Of a stretch of 64,000 nucleotides of DNA, positions 17,194-62,622 are shown piece by piece. The DNA is taken from contig CAZJPN010000092.1 of assembly GCA_964547905.1 (NCBI GenBank), forward strand, positions 3,911-67,910, written 5' to 3'. The stretch is from an uncultured Pseudomonadota bacterium (lineage in GTDB: Bacteria; JAMCPX01). Under the pieces are notes generated by a model. It ran no database searches and was not told the DNA's origin. It was given only the letters and a program-made list of their open reading frames with translations. Within the stretch, counting starts at the first letter, position 1. The number at the start of each line of letters is the position of its first letter. The translations under genes were made by a program, and so were the position numbers.

Positions 17194-18262
17194 ATATTTT
17201 TTATATCCACTGGCAAAGCAGTTTATAATATTTCATGTTTTAAAGTATATAACATTCAGGACATTGAGTGCGATGATCACAGCATTGATCATAAGCATGA
17301 TATTCGGCAACCCCTTTATAAAATTAATGACGAGAATAGGCATGGGACAGGTCGTACGATCCGACGGCCCCCAAAACCACATCAGCAAGAAAGGAACACC
17401 GACAATGGGCGGGCTTCTCATGATAGTATCCATTATTATTTCGACCATACTGTGGATGGATATTGCCAATGTGTATGTATGGGTACTCATGTTCGCCCTG
17501 CTGGGTTTTGGAGCTATCGGCTTTATAGATGATTACAAAAAACTTAAAAATAGAAATTCAAAAGGGTTGAGAGGAAGCTATAAATTAGTTCTTGAAACAA
17601 TACTTACCATTGTGATTATATATTTGCTTTTGAGGTTTGATGACATCAACTATACATTGACGTTTCCATTCTTCAAAAGATTTGTCGTTAATTTGGGCTG
17701 GCTGTACTTTCTGTTTTTCCTGTTTATTGTCATAGGAACCTCGAACGCGGTTAATCTTACGGATGGGCAGGATGGACTTGCAATTGTCCCGGTTATGACC
17801 TGCTTCGGCGTGTATGCTGTGTTCGCTTATGTGCTGGGCAACGTAAAGTTCTCCGAATACCTGATGTTTGCCCCTATTTCTGGAACAGGAGAAATAGCAA
17901 CATTTGCAGGGGCTGTTATCGGCGCTGCAATGGGATTTTTATGGTTCAACACATATCCTGCCGAGATATTTATGGGTGATGTGGGTTCTCTCGGGCTCGG
18001 AGGCGTGCTTGGTGTTGTGGCTATCATACTAAAGCAGGAGATGCTGCTTGCTATCATCGGTGGCGTTTTCGTGATTGAAGCCCTTTCCGTGATAACTCAG
18101 GTGAGTTCGTTCAAATTGATCGGCAGGCGTGTATTTGCAATGGCACCGATACACCACCATTTTGAATTGAAGGGATGGGTTGAACCGAAAATAACCGTAA
18201 GGTTCTGGATCATATCCATTTTGCTCGCGTTGCTTGGGCTGGCAACGCTTAAATTGAGGTGA
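17186..18262 (+). CDS. mraY: Phospho-N-acetylmuramoyl-pentapeptide transferase
   Basis: KKGTPTMGG, NAVNLTDGQDGLA, FMGDVGS and APIHHHFE motifs. Confidence 0.97.
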   Translation: MLEYFLYPLAKQFIIFHVLKYITFRTLSAMITALIISMIFGNPFIKLMTRIGMGQVVRSDGPQNHISKKGTPTMGGLLMIVSIIISTILWMDIANVYVWVLMFALLGFGAIGFIDDYKKLKNRNSKGLRGSYKLVLETILTIVIIYLLLRFDDINYTLTFPFFKRFVVNLGWLYFLFFLFIVIGTSNAVNLTDGQDGLAIVPVMTCFGVYAVFAYVLGNVKFSEYLMFAPISGTGEIATFAGAVIGAAMGFLWFNTYPAEIFMGDVGSLGLGGVLGVVAIILKQEMLLAIIGGVFVIEALSVITQVSSFKLIGRRVFAMAPIHHHFELKGWVEPKITVRFWIISILLALLGLATLKLR

Positions 18263-36043: not shown

Positions 36044-38038
36044 ATGACACAGTTCAGATTGGTTTCCGATTATAAACCGAGCGGGGATCAGCCCGATGCG
36101 ATAGCGAGGCTCGTGGACGGCCTGAACAAGGGCTACAAGCATCAGACATTGCTGGGGGTGACCGGATCCGGCAAGACATTTACCATGGCGAATGTAATCC
36201 AGCAGGTACAGCTTCCCACCCTTATCATGGCGCCGAACAAAACACTCGCTGCCCAGCTCTACACGGAAATGCGCGACCTGTTCCCGGACAACGCCGTCGA
36301 ATACTTTGTGAGCTATTATGATTATTATCAGCCCGAGGCGTACAAACCCGAGACCGACACCTACATTGAAAAGGATTCATCCATAAACGACGAGATAGAC
36401 AAGCTCAGGCATTCTGCAACGCACTCTCTTCTGGAGAGGGAAGACGTTATCATTGTTGCGAGCGTTTCCTGCATCTATGGACTGGGTTCGCCCGAGGCGT
36501 ACAAGGGCATGCTTGCCTATGCTGAGACAGGAAGGAAGCTCAACAGGGATGAGTTCATCCACAAGCTCGTCAAGATCCAGTACAACAGGAACAACTATGA
36601 TTTCTACCGGGGGGTATTCAGGGTCATGGGGGATATTGTCGAGGTGTTCCCTGCGTACGAAAACGATACAGGAATCCATGTGGAATTTTTCGGGGACACG
36701 GTCGACACGATATACACATTCGATCCTGTCAGGGGAACAAAGCGGGACATGCTCAGGCGGGTTGTTATCTATCCTGCAAGTCATTATGTAACGGAAGAGC
36801 ATGCGCTCAGCCATGCAGTGGAATCTATAACGCAGGAGCTTGCAGACCGTCTGAAAGAGCTGAGGCAGACGGGCAAACTACTCGAAGTCGAACGCCTGCA
36901 GAGAAGAACGCTCTACGATCTCGAGATGCTGGAGGAGATGGGATACTGTAACGGCATAGAAAACTATTCAAGGCACTTGAGCGGCAGGGCACCCGGAGAA
37001 CCGCCGCCGACCCTGCTTGATTATTTTCCTTCACGGTTCCTCATGCTCGTCGATGAGAGCCATATCACCATTCCCCAGATAGGCGGGATGTACGAAGGTG
37101 ACCGCAGCAGGAAGCGTACCCTTGTCGAGTTCGGGTTCAGGCTGCCCTCGGCACTCGACAACAGGCCGTTAAAGTTTGATGAGTTTGAGAAGAGGGTGGA
37201 CAGGATCATCTACGTCTCAGCAACACCGGCTGACTATGAGATGGTAAAATCCCAGGGTAAGGTGGTTGAACAGATCATCAGGCCGACAGGGCTCATAGAC
37301 CCGGAGATCGTTATCAAGGAGGCAACCAATCAGGTGGATACGCTGCTTGCAGAGATAAGAAGCCGTATCGAAAAAGGCGAAAGGGTGCTGGTTACAACAT
37401 TGACAAAACGCATGGCAGAGGAGCTTACGGAGTATTATGCGGGGCTCGGCATAAAGGTAAAGTACATGCACTCGGACATAGAGACACTCGAGAGAATGGA
37501 CATTATACGGGATCTCAGAATGGGCAAGTTTGATGTTCTGATCGGTATCAACCTCCTCAGGGAAGGACTTGACCTGCCCGAGGTGTCGCTCGTTGCCATA
37601 CTGGACGGAGATAAAGAAGGTTTTTTGAGATCGGCTCGTTCGCTTATCCAGACCATAGGCAGGGCATCGAGAAATGTAAACGGTACGGTCATCATCTTTG
37701 CCGATGTGATGACCAAATCCATACAGCAGGCAATGCAGGAGACAAGCAGAAGGCGCACGAGACAGCTCAGGTATAATGAAGAGCACGGTATTATACCCGA
37801 AACCATAAAAAAGAATATCCAGGAGATACGCACCTCCATCTATGAGCAGGATTATTACACCGTGCCTGTTTCAACTGCAGAGGGCGGGCAGGAATATGTC
37901 AATCCCGATAAAATACCGGACATGCTCAGGGACTTAGAGAAAGATATGAGGAAAGCAGCCAAGGCGCTCGAGTTCGAAAAGGCGGCTGAGATAAGAGACC
38001 GCATCAAAAAGCTTAAAGATGCCTTTTTGCTCGTATAA
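36044..38038 (+). CDS. uvrB: Excinuclease ABC subunit B
   Basis: [35 protein letters not shown] and a C-terminal UVR domain. Start moved to ATG 36044 (MTQFRLVS). Confidence 0.97.
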
Positions 38039-38070
38039 AATTGTATTTTTCCAAGTTAATAGTAGGATAA

Positions 38071-38208
38071 TGTAGAAATTTGCTACACTGTGTTGATTAT
38101 TGCAACATCAGTTTAAAATGCTTGTTTTCCTGTGTCTTATCTCTAACTAATAAATCAATATTATAGCCCGTCATGTATTTATAATACCTCTATGGCATAA
38201 AGTATGCA
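38071..38208 (+). promoter_or_regulatory. sigma54 promoter with tandem enhancer sites and a possible IHF site
   Basis: TGGCATaaagtATGCA (GG-N10-GC, 38193-38208); palindromes TGTAG-N7-CTACA (38071-38087) and TGTTG-N7-CAACA (38091-38107); AATCAA-N4-ATA near 38152. Confidence 0.75.
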
Positions 38209-38238
38209 GTATACAAATGATAGGGAAAGGAGGTTAAA

Positions 38239-38982
38239 ATGGAAAGCAACAAAAGATGTCCATTCTTGAAGATTCAGGTATGCGGTTATTGTTCTCTATT
38301 TCCGCTCAAAAAGATGATACCTGTTGATCAGATGAAGACAGCAAGCCTGTGTTTATCCGGTGATTACCAGCAGTGCAGCCAATATGAAGATGTTGCTGAA
38401 AAAGAACGAAACAAGCCGCCTGTATATACTCCTGAAATTGCGGAACAAGATGTAAAAGGCTTTATGATCAGAAAGAATTGTTTTTATCATTACGGGCACA
38501 CCTGGGTAAAAAAGGAGGGTGAGAACACGGTAAAGATCGGTATAGACAGCTTTGCGAGCAAGTTACTCAGCAACATACAGAACATACAACCGGTATCTGA
38601 CACGAACATCCTGAACAGCGGCAAGGCATTTATGAAGGTTCAATGCGGCGGTAAAACGGGTTTGCTCATGAGTCCTATAGACGGCGGCATATTAAATGTA
38701 AACGAATCTGTTCAACACGATGCGGGTATTGTAAATAGAGAGCCTTATGACAACGGATGGCTTCTGTCTGCGCGTATTAAAAATGACGGCTTGAAATGGC
38801 TGTTGAATGAGGAGTTGGCAGGAAAATGGATGGAGATAGAAGCGGAAAGACTTCACAGTATTATCAGACAGGATATCGGCATGACAATTACCGATGGCGG
38901 TATCATAATTGAAAGCCTTGCCGCTGTAATAGATGAAGCGGAATGGAAAGCACTCATACGGGCATTCCTGCTCAATGAGTAA
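38239..38982 (+). CDS. GcvH-like protein with Cys-rich N-terminal domain, lacking the lipoyl motif
   Basis: YHYGHTWVK, IGIDSFA, SPIDG and REPYDNGWL are H-protein-fold motifs; the N-terminus has CPFL..CGYC...C...C. Confidence 0.8.
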   Translation: MESNKRCPFLKIQVCGYCSLFPLKKMIPVDQMKTASLCLSGDYQQCSQYEDVAEKERNKPPVYTPEIAEQDVKGFMIRKNCFYHYGHTWVKKEGENTVKIGIDSFASKLLSNIQNIQPVSDTNILNSGKAFMKVQCGGKTGLLMSPIDGGILNVNESVQHDAGIVNREPYDNGWLLSARIKNDGLKWLLNEELAGKWMEIEAERLHSIIRQDIGMTITDGGIIIESLAAVIDEAEWKALIRAFLLNE

Positions 38983-39009
38983 GTGTTAAAAAGAAAGGAG
39001 GATACTAAA

Positions 39010-39696
39010 ATGGTAGCGATAATGGTTGCAATAACAATTATAGGGTTCGTTGTACTTGACCTTGTAGTTCAGAGCTTAAAGGGTAAAAAGGGTAAAGAGG
39101 AACAACAGGTAAAACTTGATTTCTCCGACTTCAGGGTACCGGTAAGTACATTCTTTTATCCGGGACACACATGGGTCAACATACTTCCCAACGGTGAAGT
39201 GCGTGTTGGTCTCGACGACTTTGTCAGGAAGGTAATCGGCGACATAGAAGGCGTGGGATTTCCGGAACAGGGCAAGAAACTGAAACAGGGAGAAGCAGCC
39301 TTTACAGTAAAGGCAGGCAACAAAACGCTTACATTCCGGTCTCCAATTGATGGAGAGGTAACCAATATAAACAAGCTCATGCTTGCCAATCCTACTGAAG
39401 TTGCAAAGAGTGCATACAACAGCGGCTGGATACTGGCGGTAAAGCCAACAAACCTTTCTGCAAATCTTAAGGTAATGAAGATCGCAGAAGAAGCCGTTGA
39501 ATGGCTCAAGGCGGAGATCAGAAGATTCCGTGAATTTGCGCTTGGTGAAAACCTTCACTACGTAAAGGATGAACTCCAGTATGAAGTCGGGCGCACGAGC
39601 CAGGACGGCGGATGCCTTACGGAAGGTATGTTGAGCCGCATGGATGAGAAGGCTGTAACGTACTTTGAAGAAGAGTTCCTCGGTAAACCCCGTTAG
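39010..39696 (+). CDS. Membrane-anchored GcvH-like protein lacking the lipoyl motif
   Basis: N-terminal TM helix MVAIMVAITIIGFVVLD (start ATG 39010 after AAGGAG); GHTWV, VGLDDF, SPIDGEV and YNSGWI motifs. Confidence 0.8.
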   Translation: MVAIMVAITIIGFVVLDLVVQSLKGKKGKEEQQVKLDFSDFRVPVSTFFYPGHTWVNILPNGEVRVGLDDFVRKVIGDIEGVGFPEQGKKLKQGEAAFTVKAGNKTLTFRSPIDGEVTNINKLMLANPTEVAKSAYNSGWILAVKPTNLSANLKVMKIAEEAVEWLKAEIRRFREFALGENLHYVKDELQYEVGRTSQDGGCLTEGMLSRMDEKAVTYFEEEFLGKPR

Positions 39697-39816
39697 AAGG
39701 ACTTACGGAGAGCGGGGCTTTTTACAGAATAAAAAGGCGTACACAAGGCGGGTTGCATAACACCTTTAACTGGGTGCGGTATTATGATAGAACAAAGATA
39801 AGAAAGGAGCAGATAT

Positions 39817-40599
39817 ATGGCTAAGATGGGTATTCTCATTGATATAACCAAATGTATAGGCTGTGGTGCTTGTGAAAAGGCATGTAAGATGCGAAACGAT
39901 CTGCCTCTTGACCTTGAGAATAACCTCTCTGCAACTGCTTATACTGTGGTTCAGGAAAGGCTGCCGAACACCTATGTAAGAAGGATGTGCATGCACTGCG
40001 AGAATCCCACGTGTGTATCGGTCTGCCCTGTGGGTGCCTTCACAAAGACAGCGGCAGGTCCTGTAATATACGATAAGGATAAATGTATCGGCTGCAGGTA
40101 TTGTATGTATTCATGTCCCTTCAGTGTGCCGAAGTACCAATGGGACAGGGTTGTTCCCTACATACAGAAATGCTATATGTGTGCGGACAGGGTTGCAGAA
40201 GGCTCTGAACCGGCATGTACAGCGGCATGCCCGACAGGTGCAAGCATATTCGGTGACAGAGATAATCTCATCGAAGAAGCGCAGAAAAGGATCAAAGACA
40301 ATCCGCATACCTACGTGGATCACATCTATGGGTTGCAGGAAGTAGGCGGCACCTCGGTGCTGTATATTTCAAGTGTTCCGTTTGAGAAACTTGGCGAACC
40401 GTTTAATATAAACCTGCCGGATAAGCCTCTTCCGATGTATACATGGGCTGCCCTGGAAAAGGTACCTACCATCGTGGTAGTGGGCGGAGTCGTATTGACG
40501 GGAATATGGTGGATAACCAGCCGCAGGGATGAGGTTAAAAAGTTCGAAATTAAACGCAAAGAAAAAAAGAAGCTCACCGACAAAGGAGATAAACCATGA
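39817..40599 (+). CDS. HybA/FdnH-like 4x[4Fe-4S] protein with C-terminal TM helix
   Basis: CIGCGACEKAC, CMHCENPTCVSVCP, CIGCRYCMYSCP and KCYMC...PACTAACP clusters; YGLQEVGGT; C-terminal anchor. Confidence 0.9.
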   Translation: MAKMGILIDITKCIGCGACEKACKMRNDLPLDLENNLSATAYTVVQERLPNTYVRRMCMHCENPTCVSVCPVGAFTKTAAGPVIYDKDKCIGCRYCMYSCPFSVPKYQWDRVVPYIQKCYMCADRVAEGSEPACTAACPTGASIFGDRDNLIEEAQKRIKDNPHTYVDHIYGLQEVGGTSVLYISSVPFEKLGEPFNINLPDKPLPMYTWAALEKVPTIVVVGGVVLTGIWWITSRRDEVKKFEIKRKEKKKLTDKGDKP

Positions 40600-40829
40600 A
40601 CATACTCGGTACACTTTTATCAAAACTATTCAACCAAAATACAGCCGATAAACAAGCCTCTGTTGATATAAAGCAAGGACAATTACAGGTGCTGGCAAAC
40701 AGGTTGAAAAAACATAGTGTTTTAACACCAAAGCTCCTGACCGGTGGAGCCATGGTTGCCGGCTTATGGTGGATAACAAAGAGGAGAGACAAGGTCAAAG
40801 AAGCAGAACGGGATAAAAGTATCAAATAA
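40596..40829 (+). CDS. Small membrane protein paralogous to the HybA-like C-terminal tail
   Basis: AGGAG Shine-Dalgarno and ATGA overlap with the upstream gene; GGAMVAGLWWITKRRDKVKE matches GGVVLTGIWWITSRRDEVKK. Confidence 0.7.
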   Translation: MNILGTLLSKLFNQNTADKQASVDIKQGQLQVLANRLKKHSVLTPKLLTGGAMVAGLWWITKRRDKVKEAERDKSIK

Positions 40830-40846
40830 AGGACTGAGAGGTATTT

Positions 40847-41995
40847 ATGAAACTGCCGAAGATAACATTCTGGAGAATTGTAATTGCCGCAATAACAATA
40901 CTCGGTATCTACTATACCATTATACGATACACAAAAGGCCTTGGCGCTGTAACCAACCTGAGCAATAAATACCCGTGGGGGCTATGGGTAGGATTCGACG
41001 TAGTAACCGGTGTAGGCCTTGCAGCAGGTGCGTTTATCATAGCTCTGACTGTCTACATATTCCGCATCGATGACTATAAACCAATCCTGAGACCTGCTAT
41101 ACTTACCGGCTTTTTGGGGTACTCGCTTGTTGCGGTCGGTCTGCTGTATGACCTCGGCAAGTGGTTTGACGTATGGCACCCCATTATTTTCTGGAACCCC
41201 CATTCCGTGATGTTTGAAGTTGCATGGTGTGTTATGCTGTATCTCACGGTCCTTGGACTTGAGTTCAGTACCGTTGTATTTGAACGATTAAAAATGCACA
41301 GGCTTAATCATTTAATCCATATACTCATTATACCGTTGTCCATATTGGGGGTCATACTTTCAACCCTGCATCAATCATCGCTTGGCTCCTTATTCCTCAT
41401 AGTACCTACAAAATTGTACGCACTGTGGTACTCACCGTATCTTCCCTTGTTCTTCTTTATCTCTGCCGTGTCCGTAGGCCTTGCAATGGTGACCATGGAA
41501 TCCTTTCTCAGCATGAGGTTTCTTGGTAAGGGTATAGAGCTCAACCTGCTCAACGGCCTTGCAAGAGTTAACGTGCTTGTCATGGCCTTTTACCTTACCT
41601 TAAAAATACTGGACCTTGCCGGCAGAGGTGTGCTCGGTGATATTATGTCAACACGATTTGAAAGCATCATGTTTGATATAGAGACGCTCGTACAGGTTGT
41701 AATACCGTTCTTGCTGCTTTTGATCCCTGCTGTAAGGACGAGTGCAAAGGGATTGTTTGTTACTTCACTGTTTATCGTGATAGGGTTCATCATGAACAGG
41801 CTTGATGTCGCAATAACGGGGGTAGAGGCCTCATCCGGAACAACGTATTTCCCGGCCTTTGGTGAGATCATGATCTCTGTATTCCTTGTAACCATGGGAT
41901 TCCTGGCTTTTGCCTTTGCTGCAAAGTACCTCAATGTTTTTGTGCATGTTGAGAAAGAAGAGGAAGGACCGGTTGAGATTATCCATGATGTTTAA
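40847..41995 (+). CDS. NrfD/HybB/PsrC-family quinone-reactive membrane subunit
   Basis: YPWGLW..FDV..GV.LAAG, DLGK, SVMFEVAWC and STLHQSSLG motifs; about 10 TM segments. Confidence 0.9.
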   Translation: MKLPKITFWRIVIAAITILGIYYTIIRYTKGLGAVTNLSNKYPWGLWVGFDVVTGVGLAAGAFIIALTVYIFRIDDYKPILRPAILTGFLGYSLVAVGLLYDLGKWFDVWHPIIFWNPHSVMFEVAWCVMLYLTVLGLEFSTVVFERLKMHRLNHLIHILIIPLSILGVILSTLHQSSLGSLFLIVPTKLYALWYSPYLPLFFFISAVSVGLAMVTMESFLSMRFLGKGIELNLLNGLARVNVLVMAFYLTLKILDLAGRGVLGDIMSTRFESIMFDIETLVQVVIPFLLLLIPAVRTSAKGLFVTSLFIVIGFIMNRLDVAITGVEASSGTTYFPAFGEIMISVFLVTMGFLAFAFAAKYLNVFVHVEKEEEGPVEIIHDV

Positions 41996-42278
41996 TACCC
42001 GTAAGAAATTTAAAGTGAATGGAGTTTGTGGATTGATTGATAATCTGTATAGGGAAGAAAGAGTTTTCTCCTCTGTTCGTGAAACAACGCTCTTGTTGCT
42101 AAAGGAAATTGTTACCATAATATGCAGTATGTATTCTTTGATACTGAAAGAGATGTTGTCCATGCAGAGTACTCTGAAAAAATATCAGGCAGTTCATTGG
42201 TGTTTCACTTCACTTCGTATCAAACTCTTTTTTCCCTGCTGTGCTTTTGGTTTAACTTGTCCGATTGGAGGTTACTCT

Positions 42279-42731
42279 ATGAAACTGTATAATGCGAGAA
42301 GATTGCTCCTGATTGTTGCTGTGCTGTCATTGTCTCTGATATCTTATACATCCTCTGTCATGGCCGCGACTCACACGTATGTGGGCGTTGAGGCGTGCAA
42401 GATGTGCCATGAAAACCAGTACAAGATATGGGAAGCAAGCGCCCATGCCAGGGCTTATGACGCTTTACCTGCAAAGGAAAAGACCAACCCTCAATGTCTG
42501 TCCTGTCATACTACCGGCGGAACAGCCGCCTTCCCCAACGTACAGTGTGAGGCGTGCCACGGACCAGGAAGCGATTATGTAGATATGGACACAATGAAAA
42601 ACTTTAAAAAGGTCTGGGACGCCGGGTTAAACCGTCATGCGGCAGAGACCTGCGTAAACTGCCACAACAAAAACAGCCCTACATTCCGGGGCTTTGACTT
42701 CAAAACATACTGGATGGAGATCATGCACTGA
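42279..42731 (+). CDS. Periplasmic tetraheme c-type cytochrome (c554-like)
   Basis: Signal peptide from ATG 42279 (after GGAGG); four CxxCH motifs (CKMCH, CLSCH, CEACH, CVNCH). Confidence 0.88.
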   Translation: MKLYNARRLLLIVAVLSLSLISYTSSVMAATHTYVGVEACKMCHENQYKIWEASAHARAYDALPAKEKTNPQCLSCHTTGGTAAFPNVQCEACHGPGSDYVDMDTMKNFKKVWDAGLNRHAAETCVNCHNKNSPTFRGFDFKTYWMEIMH

Positions 42732-42747
42732 TGGTGAAACCGTCCGG

Positions 42748-43584
42748 TCAGGAGATGAATTCCACATTCACACCGGGTATCAGTTTCAGGTCCGCGGCCT
42801 GTTTGATAAACTCCTGAATACCTGCCCTGCCTTCTTTGCCCGGCTCCAGGGTATAATCGTTTACGTACATCAGGGCAAACTGCTTCACCCTTTTCATATC
42901 CAGGCCTCTGGAATATTTCGCAGCATAGCCCATAGCCTCATCCTCATGGGCAAAACCATAAGCAATACTGTCTTTTATAGCTTGGTTGATTTTATGTTTC
43001 AGTTCTTCATCAAGAGCACGTTTAACCAAATTTATGCCGAGTGGCAGCGGCAGGCTTGTTTTTTCGAGCCACCATTTCCCGAGATCCACAATGATGTTCA
43101 GCCCGTCATCCGCATAGGTGATCTGTCCCTCATGTATGATAAGGCCGGCATGTATTTCTCCGTTTTTAACTGCAGGCATAATCTTGTCAAAAGGTATAAC
43201 CCTGTATTTGAAATTACCCATATACATCTTCAATGCGAGGAGTGCGGATGTGTACTCTCCCGGTACGGCTATTTCCATATCTGGGTTTAGTTTTTTATCC
43301 TTGCTTACCACGATTGGACCATACCCCTTTCCCATACTTGCTCCACAGGATAGTATCTGATAGTCTTTTGCAATGTACGGGTATGCATGCAGTGAAGCCG
43401 CTGTGATATCGAGCAACGGTTGACCGGTGTTTTCCATAGCACGTTTGTTCAGGGTCTCTATATCCGTCAGTACATGCTCAAATTTTATATCCGGTATATG
43501 CAGCTTATTATGCGTAAGCGCATAAAACATAAATGCATCATCAGCATCAGGACTATGCCCTATGGTCAAAACCTGTTCATTCAT
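42748..43584 (-). CDS. mqnD: 1,4-dihydroxy-6-naphthoate synthase (futalosine menaquinone pathway)
   Basis: GHSPDADDAFMF, DIETLN, GYGP, IIHEGQ, LPLPLG and MYVN motifs; likely start ATG 43584. Confidence 0.9.
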   Translation of the reverse strand: MNEQVLTIGHSPDADDAFMFYALTHNKLHIPDIKFEHVLTDIETLNKRAMENTGQPLLDITAASLHAYPYIAKDYQILSCGASMGKGYGPIVVSKDKKLNPDMEIAVPGEYTSALLALKMYMGNFKYRVIPFDKIMPAVKNGEIHAGLIIHEGQITYADDGLNIIVDLGKWWLEKTSLPLPLGINLVKRALDEELKHKINQAIKDSIAYGFAHEDEAMGYAAKYSRGLDMKRVKQFALMYVNDYTLEPGKEGRAGIQEFIKQAADLKLIPGVNVEFIS

Positions 43585-43641
43585 ACATTCTTTTCCTTTT
43601 TGTAGTTTTTTTTGTCTTGTTAATCGAACATCCAACGTTGG

Positions 43642-43977
43642 CTAAAACACCATGGGCAGGTAACCGTCATTGATAAACTGTCCAATGGGATCGCCGACGT
43701 ATTCCAGCTTGAAGCCGAGGGATGTTAATTCCTTACCGATATTGTGCATGTCTGAAATGGCCTTACAGGCAACAGGACTTCCGTTCATGGAAACAATATC
43801 GGCGATGATGGACTGTAATGCCTGATCCGTTGAAGCCAATTTTTCACTTGGTCCGAACAGGATAAGCTTGAGGTCTTCAAACCTTTTATTTTTTATGCTG
43901 TTCTGTACGAACACGAGTGCCCCGAGTGCCTTTTCCTTATTTTCCGTTGAAACTATCACTAAAACCTTTTGCTTCAT
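43642..43977 (-). CDS. DsrE-family protein
   Basis: 111 aa with LILFGPSE, ACKA and YVG..I...I.DGY motifs. Confidence 0.7.
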   Translation of the reverse strand: MKQKVLVIVSTENKEKALGALVFVQNSIKNKRFEDLKLILFGPSEKLASTDQALQSIIADIVSMNGSPVACKAISDMHNIGKELTSLGFKLEYVGDPIGQFINDGYLPMVF

Positions 43978-44151: not shown

Positions 44152-46290
44152 TTAATTCAAAACACTTACGGGTACAACCGGCAATACCACACTGGAAGGA
44201 TGCGAAGCACCGTTATAAATCGTGGTCACATTGCCGTTGGCACTTGCCTGATCCGGCTTTGTCCACACACCTTCCACCTGGTTGCTGGAACTGATGGCAA
44301 TCTGTAGTCTGTGCCCGGGACGGATCAATGCCGCAGCCGGGAATACTTCCACACGCACCAGTACTGGCTGATTGGGCACCAGCGGCTGTTTGGATGCAAG
44401 GGTAAAGGGATGCCATGGTTGTATCATCACGCCATCGATATACCGGGACCGGCTGGTATCAACCGCGCGGAATGCGGCCGACTGGATTCCCGTGGTAAGC
44501 GGTGTTGCATTGCCGAAAGCATCGACATCGTCGACACGAACGACGATGGCAGCCTCGGAATTGGTCGCGGACATCCAGATGTCTGCCTCTATGGGCCCGT
44601 TGATATAGAAGTTTGAAGTATATGGTGCCGTCGTGTAAATGAGAGCATGCTGTGATTGTTCAACCGTGGTATCATTACTGTAACATGGCAGTGGGAGCAG
44701 ACCCGCTATACCCAGACTCCACTGTACTTCACTGCTGGAACATCCGCTGCCGTCATGAGGAGTTACGAGGGCGTCAAGCATAGTCCCGCCCATGAGCGTA
44801 TTGATAGAGATAGAATCAGGCGCAGAAGGCTCGGCAATGGTGTGGTCGGCTTCATCAAAAGTCGGTGCAGTTATGTTGAGACTCATGTTGCCGTGCAGGT
44901 ACATACGCAGCGGTTGTGCCAGAGGGTTTGGCCAGTCAGTGGTGCTGGCATAGCGCTCGACACCGTTGAGTCCATAGCCTTCGACATACTGGGTAACATT
45001 GGGCATCGATACTGCCCCGATATTGATCCCCTTCAGGTATTGATCAAACCATTGCAGCATGAGGGTCTCGGCACTTGGTGCTCCGTTCGAGACGGAATTG
45101 TCATGATTGATCAGGGAGTCAAGTATGGCTTCCACATGCCCGCCCGGCAGGATAAGCAGCTTGGTCGTGACATTCCGTTTCAACTGCTCGTACAGCAATG
45201 GTTCATCACGCTGGAACAGGTCGTTGCTTCCACCAATAATAAAGGTAGGTACCGTGATAAATCTCGCATTTTCCAAGGGTGAGCGTACTGCCCAGAAAGA
45301 CCCGTCATCGGTGGCGTAGCCCGTAACGCCATCCAGAGATTGGTTAATAGTCGGCAAATACCAGTCATTGATGGCCTCCACGTGCTGCTGGGTGGCAGCT
45401 GCAATCTGTGAAGCATAATTCAGGTGTGCAAGCTCAGCCGGGATATTGGCAACACTGAGGTTCTGGGTCAGTGAGAGCCAGATGCTGATAAAATTGGCGT
45501 TGAGCAATCCGCCAGGTGCGACCGTTGCGCGGTACGGGTCCCCCATAGGAACTTCAGCAAACGCTGCCTTGATTGCAGGGTTCTGCTGCTCTGCGGTCAG
45601 CAGGGTGGTAATCCCAAGGTAAGAGGTACCGGCAACGCCGATATTGCCATTACACCATGGCTGCTGGGTTATCCAGTTCACAACATCTCCGTAGTCCGCC
45701 TGTTCCTGAACACCCAGAAGGTGTGTGATACCGGAAGACATGCCGGTGCCGCGAACATCCACAGCTACCGTAATGTAACCGCGCTTGATCATGAATTGGT
45801 CTTCGCCGCCGATCAGCAGTGTCGTATCAGCGGGTACTATAGTACCCAACAAATTGCCCAGATCGATGCGGTAAGCCGTCTGTGTCAGGATTACCGGGAA
45901 TTTACCTGCAACCGGTTTACCGTTAGCATTGGCCGGGACCGACACCAGCACTGCCAGTTTATCACCGCTTTTTGTCGTGATGAACTGCAGTGGAAGGGTC
46001 ACTGCACCAGTGTAATCGGGGTTGCGTGAATAGTTCGTCCACGTTGCATTGGCATTGATGGTAATAGGCGGATTGGGCTGACTGACTAACGAGCGCGTGC
46101 CCAAAGTAGTTGTCTGTAATGATGAGGTAGTTGTCGATGCGCCGGACACGCTCTGACTGCCGTTTGACACCTGCTGACCGATTGCGCTGTTTGAACCCGA
46201 ACATCCTGCCATAACCAGTATGGCAAAAATACTCATAATTACAAAACCAAAAGACGTATTATTCTTTTTTCTTTTTTGATTCATAATCAT
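44152..46290 (-). CDS. CocE/NonD-family alpha/beta hydrolase, predicted lipoprotein
   Basis: Lipobox VMAG-C, VDVRGTG.S.G, W...QPW.NG, nucleophile elbow GTSYLG and a PepX_C-like domain (GHRLQIAISS). Confidence 0.88.
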   Translation of the reverse strand: MIMNQKRKKNNTSFGFVIMSIFAILVMAGCSGSNSAIGQQVSNGSQSVSGASTTTSSLQTTTLGTRSLVSQPNPPITINANATWTNYSRNPDYTGAVTLPLQFITTKSGDKLAVLVSVPANANGKPVAGKFPVILTQTAYRIDLGNLLGTIVPADTTLLIGGEDQFMIKRGYITVAVDVRGTGMSSGITHLLGVQEQADYGDVVNWITQQPWCNGNIGVAGTSYLGITTLLTAEQQNPAIKAAFAEVPMGDPYRATVAPGGLLNANFISIWLSLTQNLSVANIPAELAHLNYASQIAAATQQHVEAINDWYLPTINQSLDGVTGYATDDGSFWAVRSPLENARFITVPTFIIGGSNDLFQRDEPLLYEQLKRNVTTKLLILPGGHVEAILDSLINHDNSVSNGAPSAETLMLQWFDQYLKGINIGAVSMPNVTQYVEGYGLNGVERYASTTDWPNPLAQPLRMYLHGNMSLNITAPTFDEADHTIAEPSAPDSISINTLMGGTMLDALVTPHDGSGCSSSEVQWSLGIAGLLPLPCYSNDTTVEQSQHALIYTTAPYTSNFYINGPIEADIWMSATNSEAAIVVRVDDVDAFGNATPLTTGIQSAAFRAVDTSRSRYIDGVMIQPWHPFTLASKQPLVPNQPVLVRVEVFPAAALIRPGHRLQIAISSSNQVEGVWTKPDQASANGNVTTIYNGASHPSSVVLPVVPVSVLN

Positions 46291-57144: not shown

Positions 57145-58176
57145 CTAAGAAGCAACAGGCAGCGTTACTACAAAACTTGAACCAATGCCGAATTCGCTTA
57201 CTACCTGTAACTGACCGGAATGTGCCTGAATAATCCTCTTTGCTGTAAGCACCTCTATATAAAGTTTTTCCTCATCTTTCATGTGGGAGAAGGTGTGCTT
57301 GTCTGTTACATTTTCAAAGATTGATTCCGCTGTCCCCATACCTGTATTTGCGATTACAAGCATAATATAAGGTTTATCATCCACAATGTCGTCCTTGACT
57401 TCTATGTACAGAATATCCTTTTCGTGTTCTTCTTTTATCGCAAGGCTTAGCAGATTTATCAACCCCTTGGTGAATTTTTCCCTGTCGAGTTTTATTGTAA
57501 AGTTCTCAGCTTTATAAGCGGTGTATAGCATGATACCTTGTTTCTGTGCAAAAGGCTCAATACTTTTTACACACGATTTTATAACCCTTAAAACATCTAC
57601 GTCGTCAAACTCGAGATTGAGAACGCCGGATGTCAACTGATTTATATCAAGCAGTGTTTCGAGTGCGTTCATGAGCATCCTGGTAGAATCTTTTGCCTGC
57701 CGGACATATACGTCTTCGGCTTTGAGTATTTGTTTGTTGTTGAATAGATCGTATAATGTATAGATGGGATCCTTCAATTCGTTTATCATCATGGAGGTGA
57801 GCTCTGATCTCTGTATAAGAAGGTGTTCTTCTACTGTTGTATCAAGCATATTTAAAATAAAACCGGTGTATTTTTCTTCTACCATAATGGGAGATATTCC
57901 GAGTTTCATAAACTTGTTCTTTTCTTCTATGTGTATCCTTACAGGTGTATTCGTTTGTTTTACTTTTTCTATTGACTCGGATATCTTTTCCCAGTTTTCT
58001 TTTGAAAATATTGTGGAAATGGGCGTACCTATCAGCTTGTCTACTTCTTTAGAAAGAAACCGCAGAGCAGAGGGATTGGCATAAACTATGTTGTAAGACG
58101 AATCGGCTATCAAAATCCCGCTGTCAACGAAAGCCAGAAGCGTTTTCATTTTTTTGAATAATTCCGTACCAACCAT
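57145..58176 (-). CDS. PAS-domain histidine-kinase-like protein with degenerate catalytic boxes (pseudokinase)
   Basis: PAS (GILIAD....IVYANP) plus HisKA and HATPase folds; the H-box reads MINELKDP (His to Asn) and the N, G1 and G2 boxes are altered. Confidence 0.8.
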   Translation of the reverse strand: MVGTELFKKMKTLLAFVDSGILIADSSYNIVYANPSALRFLSKEVDKLIGTPISTIFSKENWEKISESIEKVKQTNTPVRIHIEEKNKFMKLGISPIMVEEKYTGFILNMLDTTVEEHLLIQRSELTSMMINELKDPIYTLYDLFNNKQILKAEDVYVRQAKDSTRMLMNALETLLDINQLTSGVLNLEFDDVDVLRVIKSCVKSIEPFAQKQGIMLYTAYKAENFTIKLDREKFTKGLINLLSLAIKEEHEKDILYIEVKDDIVDDKPYIMLVIANTGMGTAESIFENVTDKHTFSHMKDEEKLYIEVLTAKRIIQAHSGQLQVVSEFGIGSSFVVTLPVAS

Positions 58177-58773
58177 TTAAAATCCTATAATCCCAAGTTT
58201 TGTTAACTTATAAAACCTTCTCATAGTCTCAAAACGGTCTATGTTGTTGATCGTCTGAAATATTTCTTCGGCTGTAGAATAGCCGTCAATCATTGACACA
58301 ACATAGCCGTCTGTTTTATCGAGGTTATACTTTATAAGATCCTGTTCATTGATGTTTAACTTAGGGATTTTTTTGAAACTGTACAATTCATTATAATAAA
58401 GTTTAATCAGTTGTGCTTTTACAATGGAGAGATATGCCATGAGCTGTTTATTCGAATGATAAACCTTTTCATAAAGCCTTTCGAGGAATTCATACGCAAG
58501 TTCGTACCTGCGTGATTTTAAAAGTTCTCTTATATAGTTCATATTGACAAATTCAGCACTTTTAAAGTCGGACTTTGGAACTTCTTCTGATGGCGGTGAA
58601 ATCACCGGAGATTCCGTACTGAAGCCCGCTGATTCGATATAATCAATAGCCTGTTGATTGTTTGGATCAAGTTCCACCACCTTTCTCCATATAGTAACTG
58701 CATCCTCGGTCTTGCCATAGCCGTAAAGTGTCAAACCATCCTGTAATAATTTTTCTATCTCTTCCTGGTTCAT
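58177..58773 (-). CDS. TPR protein with C-terminal S-x-IDG (winged-helix-like) domain
   Basis: N-terminal TPR (AVTIWRKVVELDPNNQQA); C-terminal GYVVSMIDGYSTAEEI. Confidence 0.75.
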   Translation of the reverse strand: MNQEEIEKLLQDGLTLYGYGKTEDAVTIWRKVVELDPNNQQAIDYIESAGFSTESPVISPPSEEVPKSDFKSAEFVNMNYIRELLKSRRYELAYEFLERLYEKVYHSNKQLMAYLSIVKAQLIKLYYNELYSFKKIPKLNINEQDLIKYNLDKTDGYVVSMIDGYSTAEEIFQTINNIDRFETMRRFYKLTKLGIIGF

Positions 58774-60347
58774 TGGTCCTTTAGTTCTAATTCAAGAGAG
58801 ATCATGCTTTCTTTCATAGTGGTTATCTCTTCAGCACTTAATCCGCTCTTTGCTTCAAGAGTAACAGTTTGTTCTATCCCGAGGTCAGCGTCCTTCGCCG
58901 TTACCCTGAGAATACCCTCGCTGTTCATGTCGAAACCGACCTCGATATTGGGTTCGCCTTTTTTGGAAAGTCTTACTCCGCTTAGAACGAACTCTCCGAG
59001 AAGTTCGTTATCATTCGCCATCTTTTCGTTGCCTTGATAAACAGCTATTCTTACCGCATCTTGATTATCATAGGTTGTTGTGAACCGACGCGTTTTTGTT
59101 ACAGGTACCGCTGTATTTCTCGGTATGATTTCTGTAAAAACGCCGCCTTTTGTCTGTATACCGAGGGACAGGGCAGTAATGTCGACAAGTATATTTGAGG
59201 GTAGAGGTGATACGATATTATAAGCGTGTATGGCTGCCCCTTCTGCCACTACTTCATCAGGGTTTATACTCCTGTTTGGTTGTTTTTCGAAAAATTCAGC
59301 CACCTTTTTTATAATGAGTGGTGCCCTTGTCTGACCCCCTACAAGTATAACCTCAGCAATGTCACTCTTTTTAAGCCCGGCGTCATCTAATGTATTCTTA
59401 CATATCTGTATGGTCTGTTCAACCAGTTCATGCATAAATCCTTCAAGAACGCTCCTTGTTATTACTGTGTTGTAGTGAATCGACCCCTGTGAAGTCTCTG
59501 TCAGGAATGGCAAAGATATTGTTGTCTCTATTTGAGAAGAAAGTTCTATCTTTGCCCTTTCTACGGCGTCCTTTAATCTCTGCATTGCCATTACATCCTG
59601 TTTTAAATCCGTTCCATTTATTTTCTTAAAATCTTCGAGTATGTAATTAATAATTCTATTATCGATATCCTCTCCGCCGAGGTATGTATTACCTGCTGTA
59701 GACAATACTTCATATACTCCTTCCCCAAGTTCGAGTATCGAGATGTCAAAGGTGCCTCCTCCAAAATCATAGACGGCTATAAGTTCATTCTTTTTCCCCC
59801 TTTTCTGTCCATAAGCCAGAGCGGATGCAGTTGGCTCGTTTATGATCCTTAAGACTTTTAATCCGGCTATCTCAGCGGCATCTATTGTAGCCTGTCTTTG
59901 ATTTTCGTTAAAATAGGCTGGCACTGTAATACATGCACCCTCTATATCATCTTCGAGAAACCCCTGTGCTACATTTTTTGCCTCAAGCAGTATAAAGGCG
60001 CTGATCTCGGGAATACTTATAGATTTTTCCCCGCATATAACCCGTATATCCTGGTGAGGGCCTTCCACAATTTCATAGGGCACTTTCGTCTTTGTAACCT
60101 GTACTTCCTTAGAATCATATCTTCTGCCTATAAGTCTCTTTGCTGCGAAGATTGTATTTTTGGGATTTGTTATTGATTGCCGTTTAGCCCTTACACCGAC
60201 AAGGTTTTTTTCATCACTGGTGATAGCAAAGTAACTCGGTATGAGTCTGTTGCCTGTTGAAGATGGTATAACCAAAGGCTTGCCGTTTAACATGGCAGCA
60301 ACACATGTGTTTGTGGTACCGAGATCGATACCTATTGTTTTACCCAT
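58770..60347 (-). CDS. Hsp70/DnaK paralog lacking most of the alpha-helical lid
   Basis: [21 protein letters not shown] and VGGQTR motifs; 525 aa, ending just after SGLSAEEI. Confidence 0.92.
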
Positions 60348-60349
60348 AA

Positions 60350-61480
60350 TTATTTAATCAAACTCCTCAATTGTTTTATTTCTACCTTAATATCATCCGT
60401 TTTAACACCAAGGGCAATAGTTTGTTCATATTCGAATAAGGAGCTTTTAAGAAGCCCGGCTTTTTTATATATTTTAGCAAGCAAAAGATGATAATCGGGG
60501 TTTTTCGGATCTAGTTCTATGGCCTTTTGGCAGTAATTTTTAGCCTCCTTCATAGGCTGATTAAAGTCATACATTACAGAGGCAAGTTTATAGTATATGG
60601 ATTTTTTTTCGTTGGTAAGTTCTATTGCAGTTTTCAGAAAATTTAATGCATCCTCCGGCTTATTCAATTCGACGCTTATATCCGCCTTTTTTAGCAAGTC
60701 CTCATATCTATTTGCCTTCATATGCCTTTCCGCCTCTTGCACCTTGTTGATATACTCTTTATCATAAGGATTATAGGAGACTGCCAATTTTAGGTTAATA
60801 TAGGCGTTGGAATAGTCATTATCCATGAAGGCCTTTATCCCAAGCTTGTAGTATGTCGATGCTTTTTTGACTCGATCTTTTATCTGATCCGTTATGATGT
60901 GCTTTGTTGATGTTTCAACGGTAGTTTTTTCAAGCTTGAGGGTATCAGTCTTTGATTTAGCAGTTGATGCCTCTGGTTTAGTCTCTATTGTTTTTTTGGT
61001 AGCTTTGTTTTTTAATGTTTCGTAAGCCTGTTGTACTTTTTTATATATATCCTCAAGAAAATGCTTGTCTTCGGGAAGAACGGCTCTTGCGTAATAACTG
61101 TCCGGATGGAACATCTTTGTCTTTTCGAAGTATGCTTCTTTAATCTGCTCCATAGGAGCACTCTCAGAAACACCGAGCATTGAATATGGATCTGCATTCT
61201 CATAAATAGCATAGAGGTCTTTTATTGATTGCTCGGTTTGTTTCTGTTCATTGGATTTAATAGGGGGATGTAAAGAGGAATCACTCTGTTTAAATTCAAC
61301 CACATTGTGATTTCTTAGATTTTCAAGGATCTTATTTACCGAGGTTAATCCAAAACCTGTTACTTTTGCTATTTCTTTTGCCGATGTTCTTCCATCGATG
61401 AGCGATACTACAAACTTCTCTTGCTCTGTTAACCCTGAAACACTACTTACCTGTTTGATAAGTTTTGGCATAGATTCCAT
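60350..61480 (-). CDS. J-domain plus TPR co-chaperone with N-terminal S-x-IDG domain
   Basis: DPYSMLGV...IKEAY...FHPD...AYETL J-domain; C-terminal TPRs (AIELDPKNPDYH); likely start ATG 61480 after AAGGA. Confidence 0.88.
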   Translation of the reverse strand: MESMPKLIKQVSSVSGLTEQEKFVVSLIDGRTSAKEIAKVTGFGLTSVNKILENLRNHNVVEFKQSDSSLHPPIKSNEQKQTEQSIKDLYAIYENADPYSMLGVSESAPMEQIKEAYFEKTKMFHPDSYYARAVLPEDKHFLEDIYKKVQQAYETLKNKATKKTIETKPEASTAKSKTDTLKLEKTTVETSTKHIITDQIKDRVKKASTYYKLGIKAFMDNDYSNAYINLKLAVSYNPYDKEYINKVQEAERHMKANRYEDLLKKADISVELNKPEDALNFLKTAIELTNEKKSIYYKLASVMYDFNQPMKEAKNYCQKAIELDPKNPDYHLLLAKIYKKAGLLKSSLFEYEQTIALGVKTDDIKVEIKQLRSLIK

Positions 61481-61680
61481 ATTCCTTATTTGTAATAATA
61501 TTAATATTTTTGTCAAGCACTAAAACGATCAATGTCTAAAGCCTATATTTATTTGCACAGTCTGTTTTTTTTGCAAAATTATAACATAAATGTACTTACA
61601 CATTACTTACAGATAGGTATTTTTTAAGTTTGTCCTTGTGATTGACAATTAGATTCCATTTATATATAAATATATTGATT

Positions 61681-62622
61681 ATGTTCAAACATAAATTAAT
61701 TTATAAGATTTTTGCTATAATAATGACATTTGTGTTTGTTTCATCCACATGGGCAGCAGATATTGCCATTATAAAAACACGTAATCTTGTGCCATACAAC
61801 GAGGCTATCACGGGTTTTACCGTAAATTGTAGTGCTCTACGTACCAAAGAGTATGACATGGAAGAGAACCAGGCACGCGGGGAAGAGATTGCAGGGCAGA
61901 TAAATGAAAGTAAGCCATCCGTTGTACTCGCTGTAGGCGCCCCTGCTGCCCAAATAGCAAAACTGTATATAGACAAATCAATTCCTGTTGTATTTATAAT
62001 GGTTCAGAGCCCCGAGAAAATAGGTCTTCAAGATATAGCCAATTTGACAGGAATTTCACTCAATATTCCCGTAGAGACGCAGTTGCGTGCATTAAAAGCC
62101 CTGGTTCCTTCTGTAATCAGGGTTGGCGCAATATACAACCCAAGGAATACGGCTCAGGAAATCAATCAGGCAATGAGGATCTCCAATCAACTTGGATTCA
62201 GGCTTATTGCAGCAAAAGTGGATACCCCCAATGACGTTACAAGGGCACTCAGAGCATTTGCTGAAGGTATAGATGCATACTGGATGCTTCCCGATATAAC
62301 AGTCATGCAGGCATTTACAACGATCCTGAACTATACAAACGACAGAAGGATACCGTTTCTTGCTCCATCAAAGATTATGGTAGACAGGGGAGCGCTTGTT
62401 TCGCTTGCTCCTAATTATGCAAATATAGGAAGTCAGGGATGCGGTATCGTTAATCAGATAATCAGCGGGACAAAACCATCTCAAATTCCTATTTCTCCTC
62501 CCACGGGATTGGAACTCACGGTTAATCTTACAGCGGCTAAAACGCTCGGATTGCAGAGCATTGCAACAAATGCAATGACATTTGCAGCATCAGAAGGCTA
62601 CAAGATAAGCATATCACAGTAA
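61681..62622 (+). CDS. ABC-type substrate-binding protein (ABC_sub_bind family)
   Basis: Signal peptide, IPVVF, NLTGIS, GAIYNP, GALVS and VNLTAAKTLGL motifs. TTGACA at 61642 is more likely the -35 element than a TTG start. Confidence 0.85.
   Translation: MFKHKLIYKIFAIIMTFVFVSSTWAADIAIIKTRNLVPYNEAITGFTVNCSALRTKEYDMEENQARGEEIAGQINESKPSVVLAVGAPAAQIAKLYIDKSIPVVFIMVQSPEKIGLQDIANLTGISLNIPVETQLRALKALVPSVIRVGAIYNPRNTAQEINQAMRISNQLGFRLIAAKVDTPNDVTRALRAFAEGIDAYWMLPDITVMQAFTTILNYTNDRRIPFLAPSKIMVDRGALVSLAPNYANIGSQGCGIVNQIISGTKPSQIPISPPTGLELTVNLTAAKTLGLQSIATNAMTFAASEGYKISISQ

Follow-up and report, generated by a model that had tools for sequence, protein, structure and literature searches.

Many anaerobic respirations (of sulfur, nitrite, arsenate, metal and hydrogen) have NrfD-type modules as their gateways to quinone, and the energy conservation of these modules is actively studied. 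In the solved relatives, the iron-sulfur (Fe-S) subunit lies on the periplasmic face of the membrane, and Fe-S subunits devoid of a signal of their own, such as FdnH and DmsB, are usually exported with a catalytic partner that carries a twin-arginine translocation (Tat) signal. The Hmc and Nhc complexes of sulfate reducers (HmcABCDEF and NhcABCD) unite a periplasm-type 4x[4Fe-4S] protein anchored by its C-terminus, a ten-helix subunit of the NrfD family, a multihaem cytochrome c and a small extra membrane protein; HybA and HybB belong to hydrogenase-2 of E. coli; and the Cbc4 complex of Geobacter sulfurreducens (CbcS-CbcT-CbcU) is proposed, in the available part of its preprint, to be a quinol:cytochrome c oxidoreductase, its role being still unknown (bioRxiv 10.1101/2025.04.14.648717). 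Here, we analysed a stretch of 64,000 nt (hereafter the window, i.e., the whole stretch) from an uncultured bacterium of the Pseudomonadota (GTDB lineage JAMCPX01; assembly GCA_964547905.1, contig CAZJPN010000092.1, positions 3,911 to 67,910, forward strand), in which six genes at 38239-42731 bring together parts of these kinds and add to them two proteins, G1 and G2, with the fold of the glycine cleavage H-protein (GcvH; H-fold). With a probability of about one half, we read this cluster as an operon that depends on sigma-54 and encodes an electron-transfer module of the HybAB/HmcBC/Cbc4 kind, linked to menaquinone, in which the H-fold proteins are accessory or regulatory.

The six co-oriented genes announced by the initial annotation are all present on the + strand, and their junctions are short or overlapping. 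They encode G1 (38239-38982, 247 aa), G2 (39010-39696, 228 aa), a 4x[4Fe-4S] protein resembling HybA, HmcB and FdnH (39817-40599, 260 aa), a 77-aa single-helix protein (40596-40829), a membrane subunit of the NrfD family resembling HybB and HmcC (40847-41995) and a tetrahaem cytochrome c predicted to be periplasmic (42279-42731). The listed open reading frame (ORF) of G2 opens on an alternative GTG at 38983; the true start is probably the ATG at 39010, since a Shine-Dalgarno sequence (AAAGGAGG) lies 7 nt upstream of it. For the cytochrome, an ORF start at 41910 was discarded; the real start is the ATG at 42279, which gives a protein of 150 aa with four CxxCH motifs and a signal-peptide-like N-terminus. 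The cluster is more than a chance arrangement, the gene order recurring in relatives and in other phyla. In what follows, C denotes contigs of the source genome (100% complete by marker genes; the window contig is C92), L loci from named genomes, G genomes, and P protein representatives.

The core of the module is made of the Fe-S protein and NrfD. Their best NCBIfam matches are HmcB (NF045715, 254.6 bits against a cut-off of 420) and HmcC (NF045714, 319.2 against 550), and HybA (NF008134, 200.9 against 263) and HybB (NF008133, 281.3 against 450) also match; none of these four equivalog cut-offs is reached. The Fe-S protein, matched in Pfam by Fer4_11 among other families and in NCBIfam also by formate dehydrogenase beta-subunit models, has FdnH as nearest solved relative (1kqf_B, E 1.8e-34). 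Its 16 cysteines, invariant in 23 aligned orthologues, are enough for four [4Fe-4S] clusters, and it ends in a membrane helix followed by a basic tail. It starts 12 residues before the first Cys motif, and stop codons that precede this start in frame, in the window as in all four relatives inspected, leave no room for an earlier one. The 77-aa ORF overlaps its stop by 4 nt and copies its helix and basic tail: residues 54-71 align with residues 227-244 of the Fe-S protein (11/18 identical, E 2e-07) around a shared motif, WWITxRRDxVK. This small paralogue, which matches no Pfam or NCBIfam family, is found in five family loci (L019-L022 and L015) and is absent by tblastn from L023-L025.

The NrfD subunit scores 66.5 bits with PF03916 (cut-off 25.8) and, as read from its sequence, has ten helices with both ends inside. 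According to the sections available of a review, the functional residues of E. coli HybB are D109 and S129 at the quinone site, R89, Y99, E148 and H184 on the proton path, and a mid-membrane arginine, R329 (PMC8076601). All seven are kept in the window protein (R82, Y92, D102, S120, E139, H175 and R318), and they are kept in 23-24 of the 24 NrfDs encoded in such cassettes. The membrane module thus looks functional, judging from these conserved residues. Directly beyond the cytochrome gene, and convergent to the operon, a VitK2_biosynth gene of menaquinone biosynthesis (42748-43635, - strand; Pfam 236.9 bits) is followed by a 111-aa gene without clear family (43642-43977, - strand). The VitK2_biosynth gene holds this place beside the operon in G002 and G006 as well; of the seven family loci from named genomes, four have it there and a fifth (L020) has it some 4 kb downstream. 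The 111-aa gene accompanies it in only some of those loci. That it is kept beside the operon hints that menaquinone is the quinone used.

Beyond this common core, the locus departs from each of the described systems. Compared with Hmc, it lacks the 16- or 9-haem cytochrome (its sole cytochrome has four CxxCH), HmcE/F and a Tat signal on the Fe-S protein, and it adds the two GcvH-fold genes and a probable control by sigma-54 and a haem sensor. With HybA/HybB, it shares both protein families and all seven HybB residues named above; it differs by the lack of a hydrogenase in the genome, by the Fe-S protein without Tat signal, and by the extra H-fold proteins and cytochrome. The likeness to Cbc4, as described in the available preprint text, is in the kinds of parts (a tetrahaem cytochrome, a 4x[4Fe-4S] protein and an integral membrane subunit): CbcS is a membrane-anchored cytochrome of NapC/NirT type, whereas the window cytochrome appears from its sequence to be small and soluble, with a signal peptide. 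Its Pfam matches are Cytochrome_C554, Paired_CXXCH_1 and the c7 and c3 families, with no match to Cytochrom_NNT (NapC/NirT) at E<=0.01. In the texts consulted for this comparison, partly accessible, H-fold proteins are not reported with Hmc/Nhc, HybA/HybB or Cbc4, and the word 'glycine' does not occur in the part of the Cbc4 preprint available (bioRxiv 10.1101/2025.04.14.648717).

G1 and G2, which are 28-31% identical to each other, match the Pfam family GCV_H (PF01597) with 73 and 70.9 bits (cut-off 22.2). In the AlphaFold model of G1 (predicted local distance difference test score, pLDDT, of 82.3), the core superposes on solved H-proteins with a Foldseek E of 5e-12, a target template-modelling (TM) score of 0.89 and a root-mean-square deviation of 1.8 A, and the target TM scores against solved H-proteins and GcvH-L (5a35) range from 0.84 to 0.91. 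The fold is thus that of the lipoyl carriers GcvH, LbpA and GcvH-L, and the differences lie elsewhere. At the column of the lipoyl lysine (VESVK), in an alignment with the two lysine-bearing GcvH of the same genome, G1 has Gly and G2 has Asn; across 151 cluster representatives of the family, this column holds no Lys at all (G 47, D 27, N 16, E 14, S 13). The term 'lipoate-free', used for these proteins in the initial annotation, is therefore borne out. Their scores stay far under the cut-offs of the NCBIfam models for GcvH, 'not_gcvH' and 'GcvH_rel_desulf' (for G1 and G2, respectively: TIGR00527, 55.9 and 56.1 against 115.85; NF002270, 71.5 and 70.6 against 117; TIGR03077, 31.4 and 43 against 144; NF045810, 33.6 and 27 against 150). 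Moreover, all members of the family are extended at the C-terminus by about 60 aa, in which D219-G220-G221, W236 and F243 are invariant (G1 numbering), the DGG lying in a loop of low model confidence (residues 214-222), and they add to the fold either an N-terminal anchor or a four-Cys module. Their neighbours are Fe-S/NrfD genes and sigma-54 regulators, and not gcvTP, sHdr or sirtuin/macrodomain genes. Indeed, in the source genome, the canonical gcvT-gcvH pair and GcvP are on C73, lpd-gcvH2 is on C64, CCG/Hdr-like proteins are on C46 and the single gene of the BPL/LplA/LipB family is on C32. The same holds for all whole-genome matches to hydrogenase and molybdoenzyme families, which lie on contigs other than C92; the window is free of hydrogenase, molybdoenzyme, gcvP/T/L, lipoate ligase and sHdr genes, as first noted.

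The N-termini of the two proteins differ. G1 is soluble and begins with a module of four invariant cysteines (C7, C18, C38 and C46) in the pattern CPFL-x7-C-x3-P-x2-KKMIP-x9-C-x7-C, which matches no Pfam or NCBIfam family and is found single or doubled in tandem in other representatives. It also seems to occur alone, as a small ORF or in another frame, at L029:8983-9168 and G007:C67:2725-2901, both times just before a membrane-anchored H-fold gene. These occurrences suggest an independent domain. Modelled by itself (62 aa, alignment of 10 rows), the module gave a poor model (pLDDT 68.4, predicted TM score 0.31), with which a wide structural search returned one row at Z 2.0; a search of the ESM Atlas with G1 residues 1-62 gave no usable match. 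G2 starts with a membrane helix followed by KGKKGK, which, by the positive-inside rule only, suggests that its domain is cytoplasmic. Fusions elsewhere in the family are more varied: P0069 (1391 aa) joins three lysine-less H-fold copies to a flavin adenine dinucleotide (FAD) oxidase, a 4Fe-4S and two CCG domains; P0077 and P0108 (about 430 aa) join 2Fe-2S and 4Fe-4S domains to one H-fold copy; and P0020 (363 aa) joins a receiver domain to a G1-type protein. They suggest that the H-fold works in the cytoplasm with redox or signalling partners, and as a docking or regulatory domain rather than as a catalyst. A complex prediction for NrfD, the Fe-S protein and G2, using alignments and with G2 as the partner, scored 0.04 against a mark of 0.32, in a run without controls.

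The gene set is conserved well beyond the source genome. Among 11 other genomes of the same family, the G1 orthologue is full-length in eight and split over two contig ends in one; of the remaining two, one has only the N-terminal module and a G2-like gene, and one has nothing of it. The order G1-G2-FeS-(77 aa)-NrfD-(cytochrome) is seen in four family genomes, and the distant genome G035 shows the order G1-G2-FeS-NrfD-G3. A word-index search for homologues gave 13 close relatives, annotated as glycine cleavage H-protein, and a profile search of 1.84 billion representatives gave 230 matches at E<=1e-30 that cover the extension. We found 517 related loci in named genomes, and our neighbourhood counts refer to the best 80 of these 517, with flanks of up to 9 kb. 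These 80 come mostly from Acidobacteriota, and also from Verrucomicrobiia, Rokubacteria, Nitrospinae, Deferrimicrobia, Thermodesulfobacteriota, Binatia and one Chitinophagales genome. HybA-like and HybB-like genes are both present in 42 of the 80, mostly within 0.2-1.7 kb. Across phyla, the survey thus finds GcvH-like genes conserved together with hybA/nrfD-like genes, an outcome in favour of the initial annotation, which a lack of such co-conservation would have refuted. In one of these loci, L029, whose Fe-S protein is without Tat signal, the NrfD gene is followed (12915-18103) by genes for a HdrD-like CCG protein, EtfB, EtfA and a 709-aa Fe-S/CCG protein, which makes a link to the cytoplasmic electron-transfer flavoprotein possible.

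A second conserved feature is the regulation. A set that recurs emerged from six loci (four distant ones annotated with Pfam and two others read from their ORFs): genes for a histidine kinase with a HAMP domain, a Peptidase_M54 protein and a response regulator of sigma-54 type come first, and the H-fold, Fe-S, NrfD and H-fold genes come next. Queried with the trio of the source genome, the kinase/M54/activator set is complete in 35 of the 42 Fe-S/NrfD loci vs. 3 of the 38 others, and it lies directly upstream of G1 in the family relatives L021, L025 and L026. In the source genome, the trio is on another contig (C79:57812-61320); a TatC-like gene comes directly after it (C79 region 57812-62097). 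In the kinase, a domain that contains CYACH and CSSASCH lies between two membrane helices, and the protein is probably a periplasmic haem-c sensor; the M54 peptidase carries HELGH. Upstream of G1, on the + strand, a -24/-12 element of sigma-54 type (TGGCAT-N5-ATGC, 38193-38207) ends 32 nt before the start codon. Its TGGCA and TATGC are invariant in the eight family sequences, vs. a mean column identity of 66% over the region, and in 15 of the 42 cassette loci a similar motif stands before the H-fold gene, where the loci's own motif density predicts 0.025 per 560-nt stretch. Over the whole window, the loose motif occurs about as often as expected by chance (53 times for 52), so that the evidence for sigma-54 lies in position and conservation and not in the match itself. 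A palindrome, TGTAG-N7-CTACA (38071-38087, + strand; read from the sequence), is partly conserved in the upstream alignment of seven relatives and is a possible binding site for the sigma-54 activator.

The mechanism that we infer, including the topology, the direction of electron flow and every role given to the H-fold proteins, would run as follows. The ten-helix NrfD would bind quinone and keep a HybB-type proton path. The four-cluster Fe-S protein, held by its C-terminal helix, would wire the quinone site to the periplasmic tetrahaem cytochrome c, with quinol:cytochrome c electron transfer, or the reverse, as net reaction. G2 would be anchored at the cytoplasmic face by its N-terminal helix and G1 would be soluble in the cytoplasm, both being accessory parts that dock onto the membrane module or regulate it, and not cofactor carriers. 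Contact might be made, speculatively, through the loops on the cytoplasmic side and through the conserved WWITxRRxEV tail that the Fe-S protein shares with its 77-aa copy. Expression would probably be switched by the periplasmic haem-c sensor kinase and the sigma-54 activator, which are encoded with the M54 peptidase on C79.

Several results weigh against this reading. The Fe-S protein has no Tat signal in the window, nor in 35 of the 41 loci where its N-terminus is readable; a clear RRxFLK signal is present in the six others (L027, L028 and L030-L033; the pattern flagged eight loci, L029 and L053 being false by eye). A scan of the source genome with a rough home-made pattern, which missed the Fe-S protein of C46, recognised no Tat-signal catalytic carrier; it listed DsrO, two small C61 proteins and a 337-aa C7 protein (MKRRRF..., a possible twin-arginine signal). 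As NrfD has no redox cofactor, no simple exchange of electrons is possible between proteins at the cytoplasmic face and a Fe-S protein in the periplasm. The cytochrome is an accessory of this lineage only: six of the seven named-genome loci of the family have its gene, and the 73 other loci lack it. In the window, it is moreover separated from nrfD by an inserted repeat: the gap (41996-42278) measures 283 nt vs. 28-37 nt in relatives, and blastn against the own genome delimits within it a dispersed repeat of about 180 nt (42050-42235, approximate ends), with 30 further matches on 22 other contigs at 72-90% identity. From its sequence, this repeat is like a miniature inverted-repeat transposable element or a repetitive extragenic palindrome. 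Finally, 38 of the 80 loci have an H-fold gene without nearby Fe-S/NrfD (26 with full 9-kb flanks, 12 with shortened ones), so that the link between the H-fold family and the module is not general. Four of these 38 were annotated with Pfam, and three of the four have lone membrane-anchored H-fold paralogues in unrelated surroundings. Since neither a Tat signal nor a carrier was found, the periplasmic location of the Fe-S protein and its link to the cytochrome are not secured. Of the quinol:cytochrome c module put forward initially, the quinone-linked look of the Fe-S, NrfD and cytochrome genes stands, and the side of the Fe-S protein, with it the simple quinol:cytochrome c scheme, is less certain. 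The role of adaptors or redox sensors proposed initially for the H-fold proteins is a possible one, suggested by fusions and neighbourhood.

Lone paralogues of this type, all membrane-anchored, occupy L038, L041, L058 and 23 further full-flank loci in acidobacterial and verrucomicrobial genomes, with no Fe-S/NrfD or regulator genes within 9 kb and with neighbours such as photolyase, TilS or an ABC transporter. Another locus, L062 (Desulfobacteraceae), pairs two Cys-rich H-fold genes with those of an M54 peptidase, a sigma-54 activator and a PAS kinase; its 6-kb contig is devoid of Fe-S/NrfD genes.

Either the Fe-S protein rides out with a partner or it stays inside. An inward-facing donor:quinone oxidoreductase would keep the signal-less Fe-S protein in the cytoplasm, where the H-fold proteins would dock cytoplasmic donors, G1 perhaps binding a cluster through its four-Cys module; the cytochrome would be a separate add-on, as its confinement to one lineage would fit. 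The split between 35 signal-less loci and six with a clear twin-arginine signal speaks for it, all the more since the two forms fall in different NrfD clades: in the tree, the Tat-form NrfDs group with the source genome's own Hmc-like NrfD (C46; support 99/100), while the signal-less lineages (window family, Acidobacteria, two single loci) branch separately, on a backbone unresolved with respect to HybB; the window NrfD is outside the Hmc-like clade, and DsrP and HybB sit on long branches. The HdrD/Etf genes of the signal-less L029, together with the ferredoxin-like and FAD-oxidase/CCG fusions, also favour a Fe-S protein that stays inside. On the contrary, the 17 Fe-S proteins inspected, of both forms, all end with a hydrophobic helix directly followed by basic residues, as expected for a cytoplasmic tail and an outside domain; and the 16 NrfD sequences, Tat and signal-less forms alike, are all richer in Lys and Arg in their even loops, which fits the ends-inside topology and excludes an inversion of NrfD in the signal-less form. 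These two features argue for an outside Fe-S domain, as do the periplasmic Fe-S subunits of the solved relatives and the export of the signal-less FdnH with its partner. We hold this inward-facing arrangement to be quite unlikely. A more elaborate version, in which NrfD quinone modules have a novel type of cytoplasmic subunit, the lysine-less H-fold extended by DGG-W, G1 and G2 docking donors or gating the proton path beside an inside Fe-S protein (inward-facing NrfCD-type), under a haem-sensing sigma-54 switch and perhaps with M54 processing, seems to us just as doubtful; to our knowledge, an inward-facing orientation has not been described for NrfCD-type modules and, if true, it would be new to this family. 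The habit of signal-less subunits such as FdnH and DmsB of riding with a Tat-signal catalytic subunit, and FdnH being the nearest solved relative, could also mean that the Fe-S/NrfD pair is just the detached anchor of some known enzyme encoded elsewhere (a hydrogenase, a formate dehydrogenase or another molybdoenzyme), with the H-fold genes as bystanders. This is very improbable, as the complete genome contains no such enzyme to serve: its only molybdopterin-family match lies beside a NuoD-like gene on C40, and no NiFe hydrogenase (NiFeSe_Hases) is above cut-off, the weak matches falling in NuoD-like and C18 group-4-like membrane clusters. There is thus no periplasmic hydrogenase or molybdoenzyme of which the module would be the anchor, an eventuality that the initial annotation had raised. 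In addition, the other two of the genome's three NrfD genes have Fe-S partners with twin-arginine signals of their own, in complete clusters: one in DsrMKJOP, with DsrC nearby, and one in the Hmc-like cluster C46:56119-62384 (NarI-like and HdrD-like genes, a 584-aa protein, the Tat-signal Fe-S protein and NrfD), which has HmcE/F-like genes and no adjoining H-fold gene. The co-conservation of H-fold genes with the Fe-S/NrfD pair across phyla likewise speaks against bystanders.

The H-fold proteins themselves allow two other explanations. They could be signalling parts that report the state of Fe-S/NrfD or of the quinone pool to the kinase and activator, or be themselves a regulated output, and the M54 peptidase may act on them. 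The trio travelling with 35 of the 42 cassettes, its pairing with two Cys-rich H-fold genes in L062, the receiver domain of P0020 and the invariant DGG in a low-confidence loop are all in line with such a role, which overlaps our preferred reading more than it excludes it. As a separate explanation we consider it unlikely: the other fusions add Fe-S and flavin/CCG redox domains and not signalling ones, the G2-type proteins are membrane-anchored and encoded in the same operon as the membrane module, and the trio is unlinked to it in the source genome. Alternatively, G1 and G2 might still carry a swinging-arm cofactor, i.e., lipoate on a lysine one position after the canonical site or a modification of, for instance, a cysteine two positions before it, and shuttle reducing equivalents or sulfur. 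Both proteins do have this +1 Lys; a Cys at -2 is frequent in G1-type proteins; one representative fuses the H-fold to CCG domains; and LbpA of the sHdr system provides, in the sections available, a precedent of H-like proteins that serve Hdr-like enzymes (PMC6067878). Across the 151 representatives, however, the +1 column is a mixture of Arg (50) and Lys (47), so that the shifted lysine is not a conserved feature of the family, and the Cys is found in only 38, which makes neither a family feature. The NCBIfam scores far under the GcvH-related cut-offs, and the lack of a dedicated ligase nearby (the single BPL/LplA/LipB-family gene being on C32), go in the same direction, and we give a swinging arm very little credit.

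We thus see in the module a widespread variant of a complex of known type, undescribed within the scope of our searches. It is found in at least 230 sequence clusters and 517 loci from named genomes, in Acidobacteriota, Verrucomicrobiota, Nitrospinota, Rokubacteria, Deferrimicrobia, Thermodesulfobacteriota and one Bacteroidota genome. Compared with the complexes listed in the part of the review available, the added parts are the cofactor-less H-folds and the control by haem sensor, sigma-54 and peptidase. In open-access texts and preprints, we found no description of a gene set combining H-fold and Fe-S/NrfD genes, though subscription journals or supplementary tables may hold one, in agreement with the initial annotation, which knew of no functional characterisation; the proteins called 'GcvH-like' in the portions available of these texts are all lipoylated GcvH-L or LbpA, and the accessible text of a genome paper on an acid-mine lineage contains no NrfD, Hmc, HybA or glycine cleavage. 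Should the H-fold proteins prove to be subunits or regulators, this would add a third use to the two that the fold has in lipoyl carriers and in structural barrel-sandwich domains, and would offer a handle on the tuning of quinone-linked electron flow. The missing Tat signal, for its part, makes the sidedness of the module a sharp and testable question.

A few minor observations concern the surroundings. An Rfam search of 37900-43000 gave a single sub-threshold match, PinT (25.2 vs. 60 bits), which we take as chance, and a promoter/terminator scan gave counts not above those of shuffled sequences, with no terminator-like site on the + strand inside the operon. Among the sequencing runs listed as containing the stretch are three DNA runs of a single study and no RNA run. 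A UvrB gene lies upstream of the operon, where L021, L025 and L026 have the regulatory trio. On the other side, past the 111-aa gene, a gene for a 712-aa hydrolase of S15/CocE-NonD type (44152-46290, - strand) stands out by a G+C content of 0.519 vs. about 0.42-0.45 around it.

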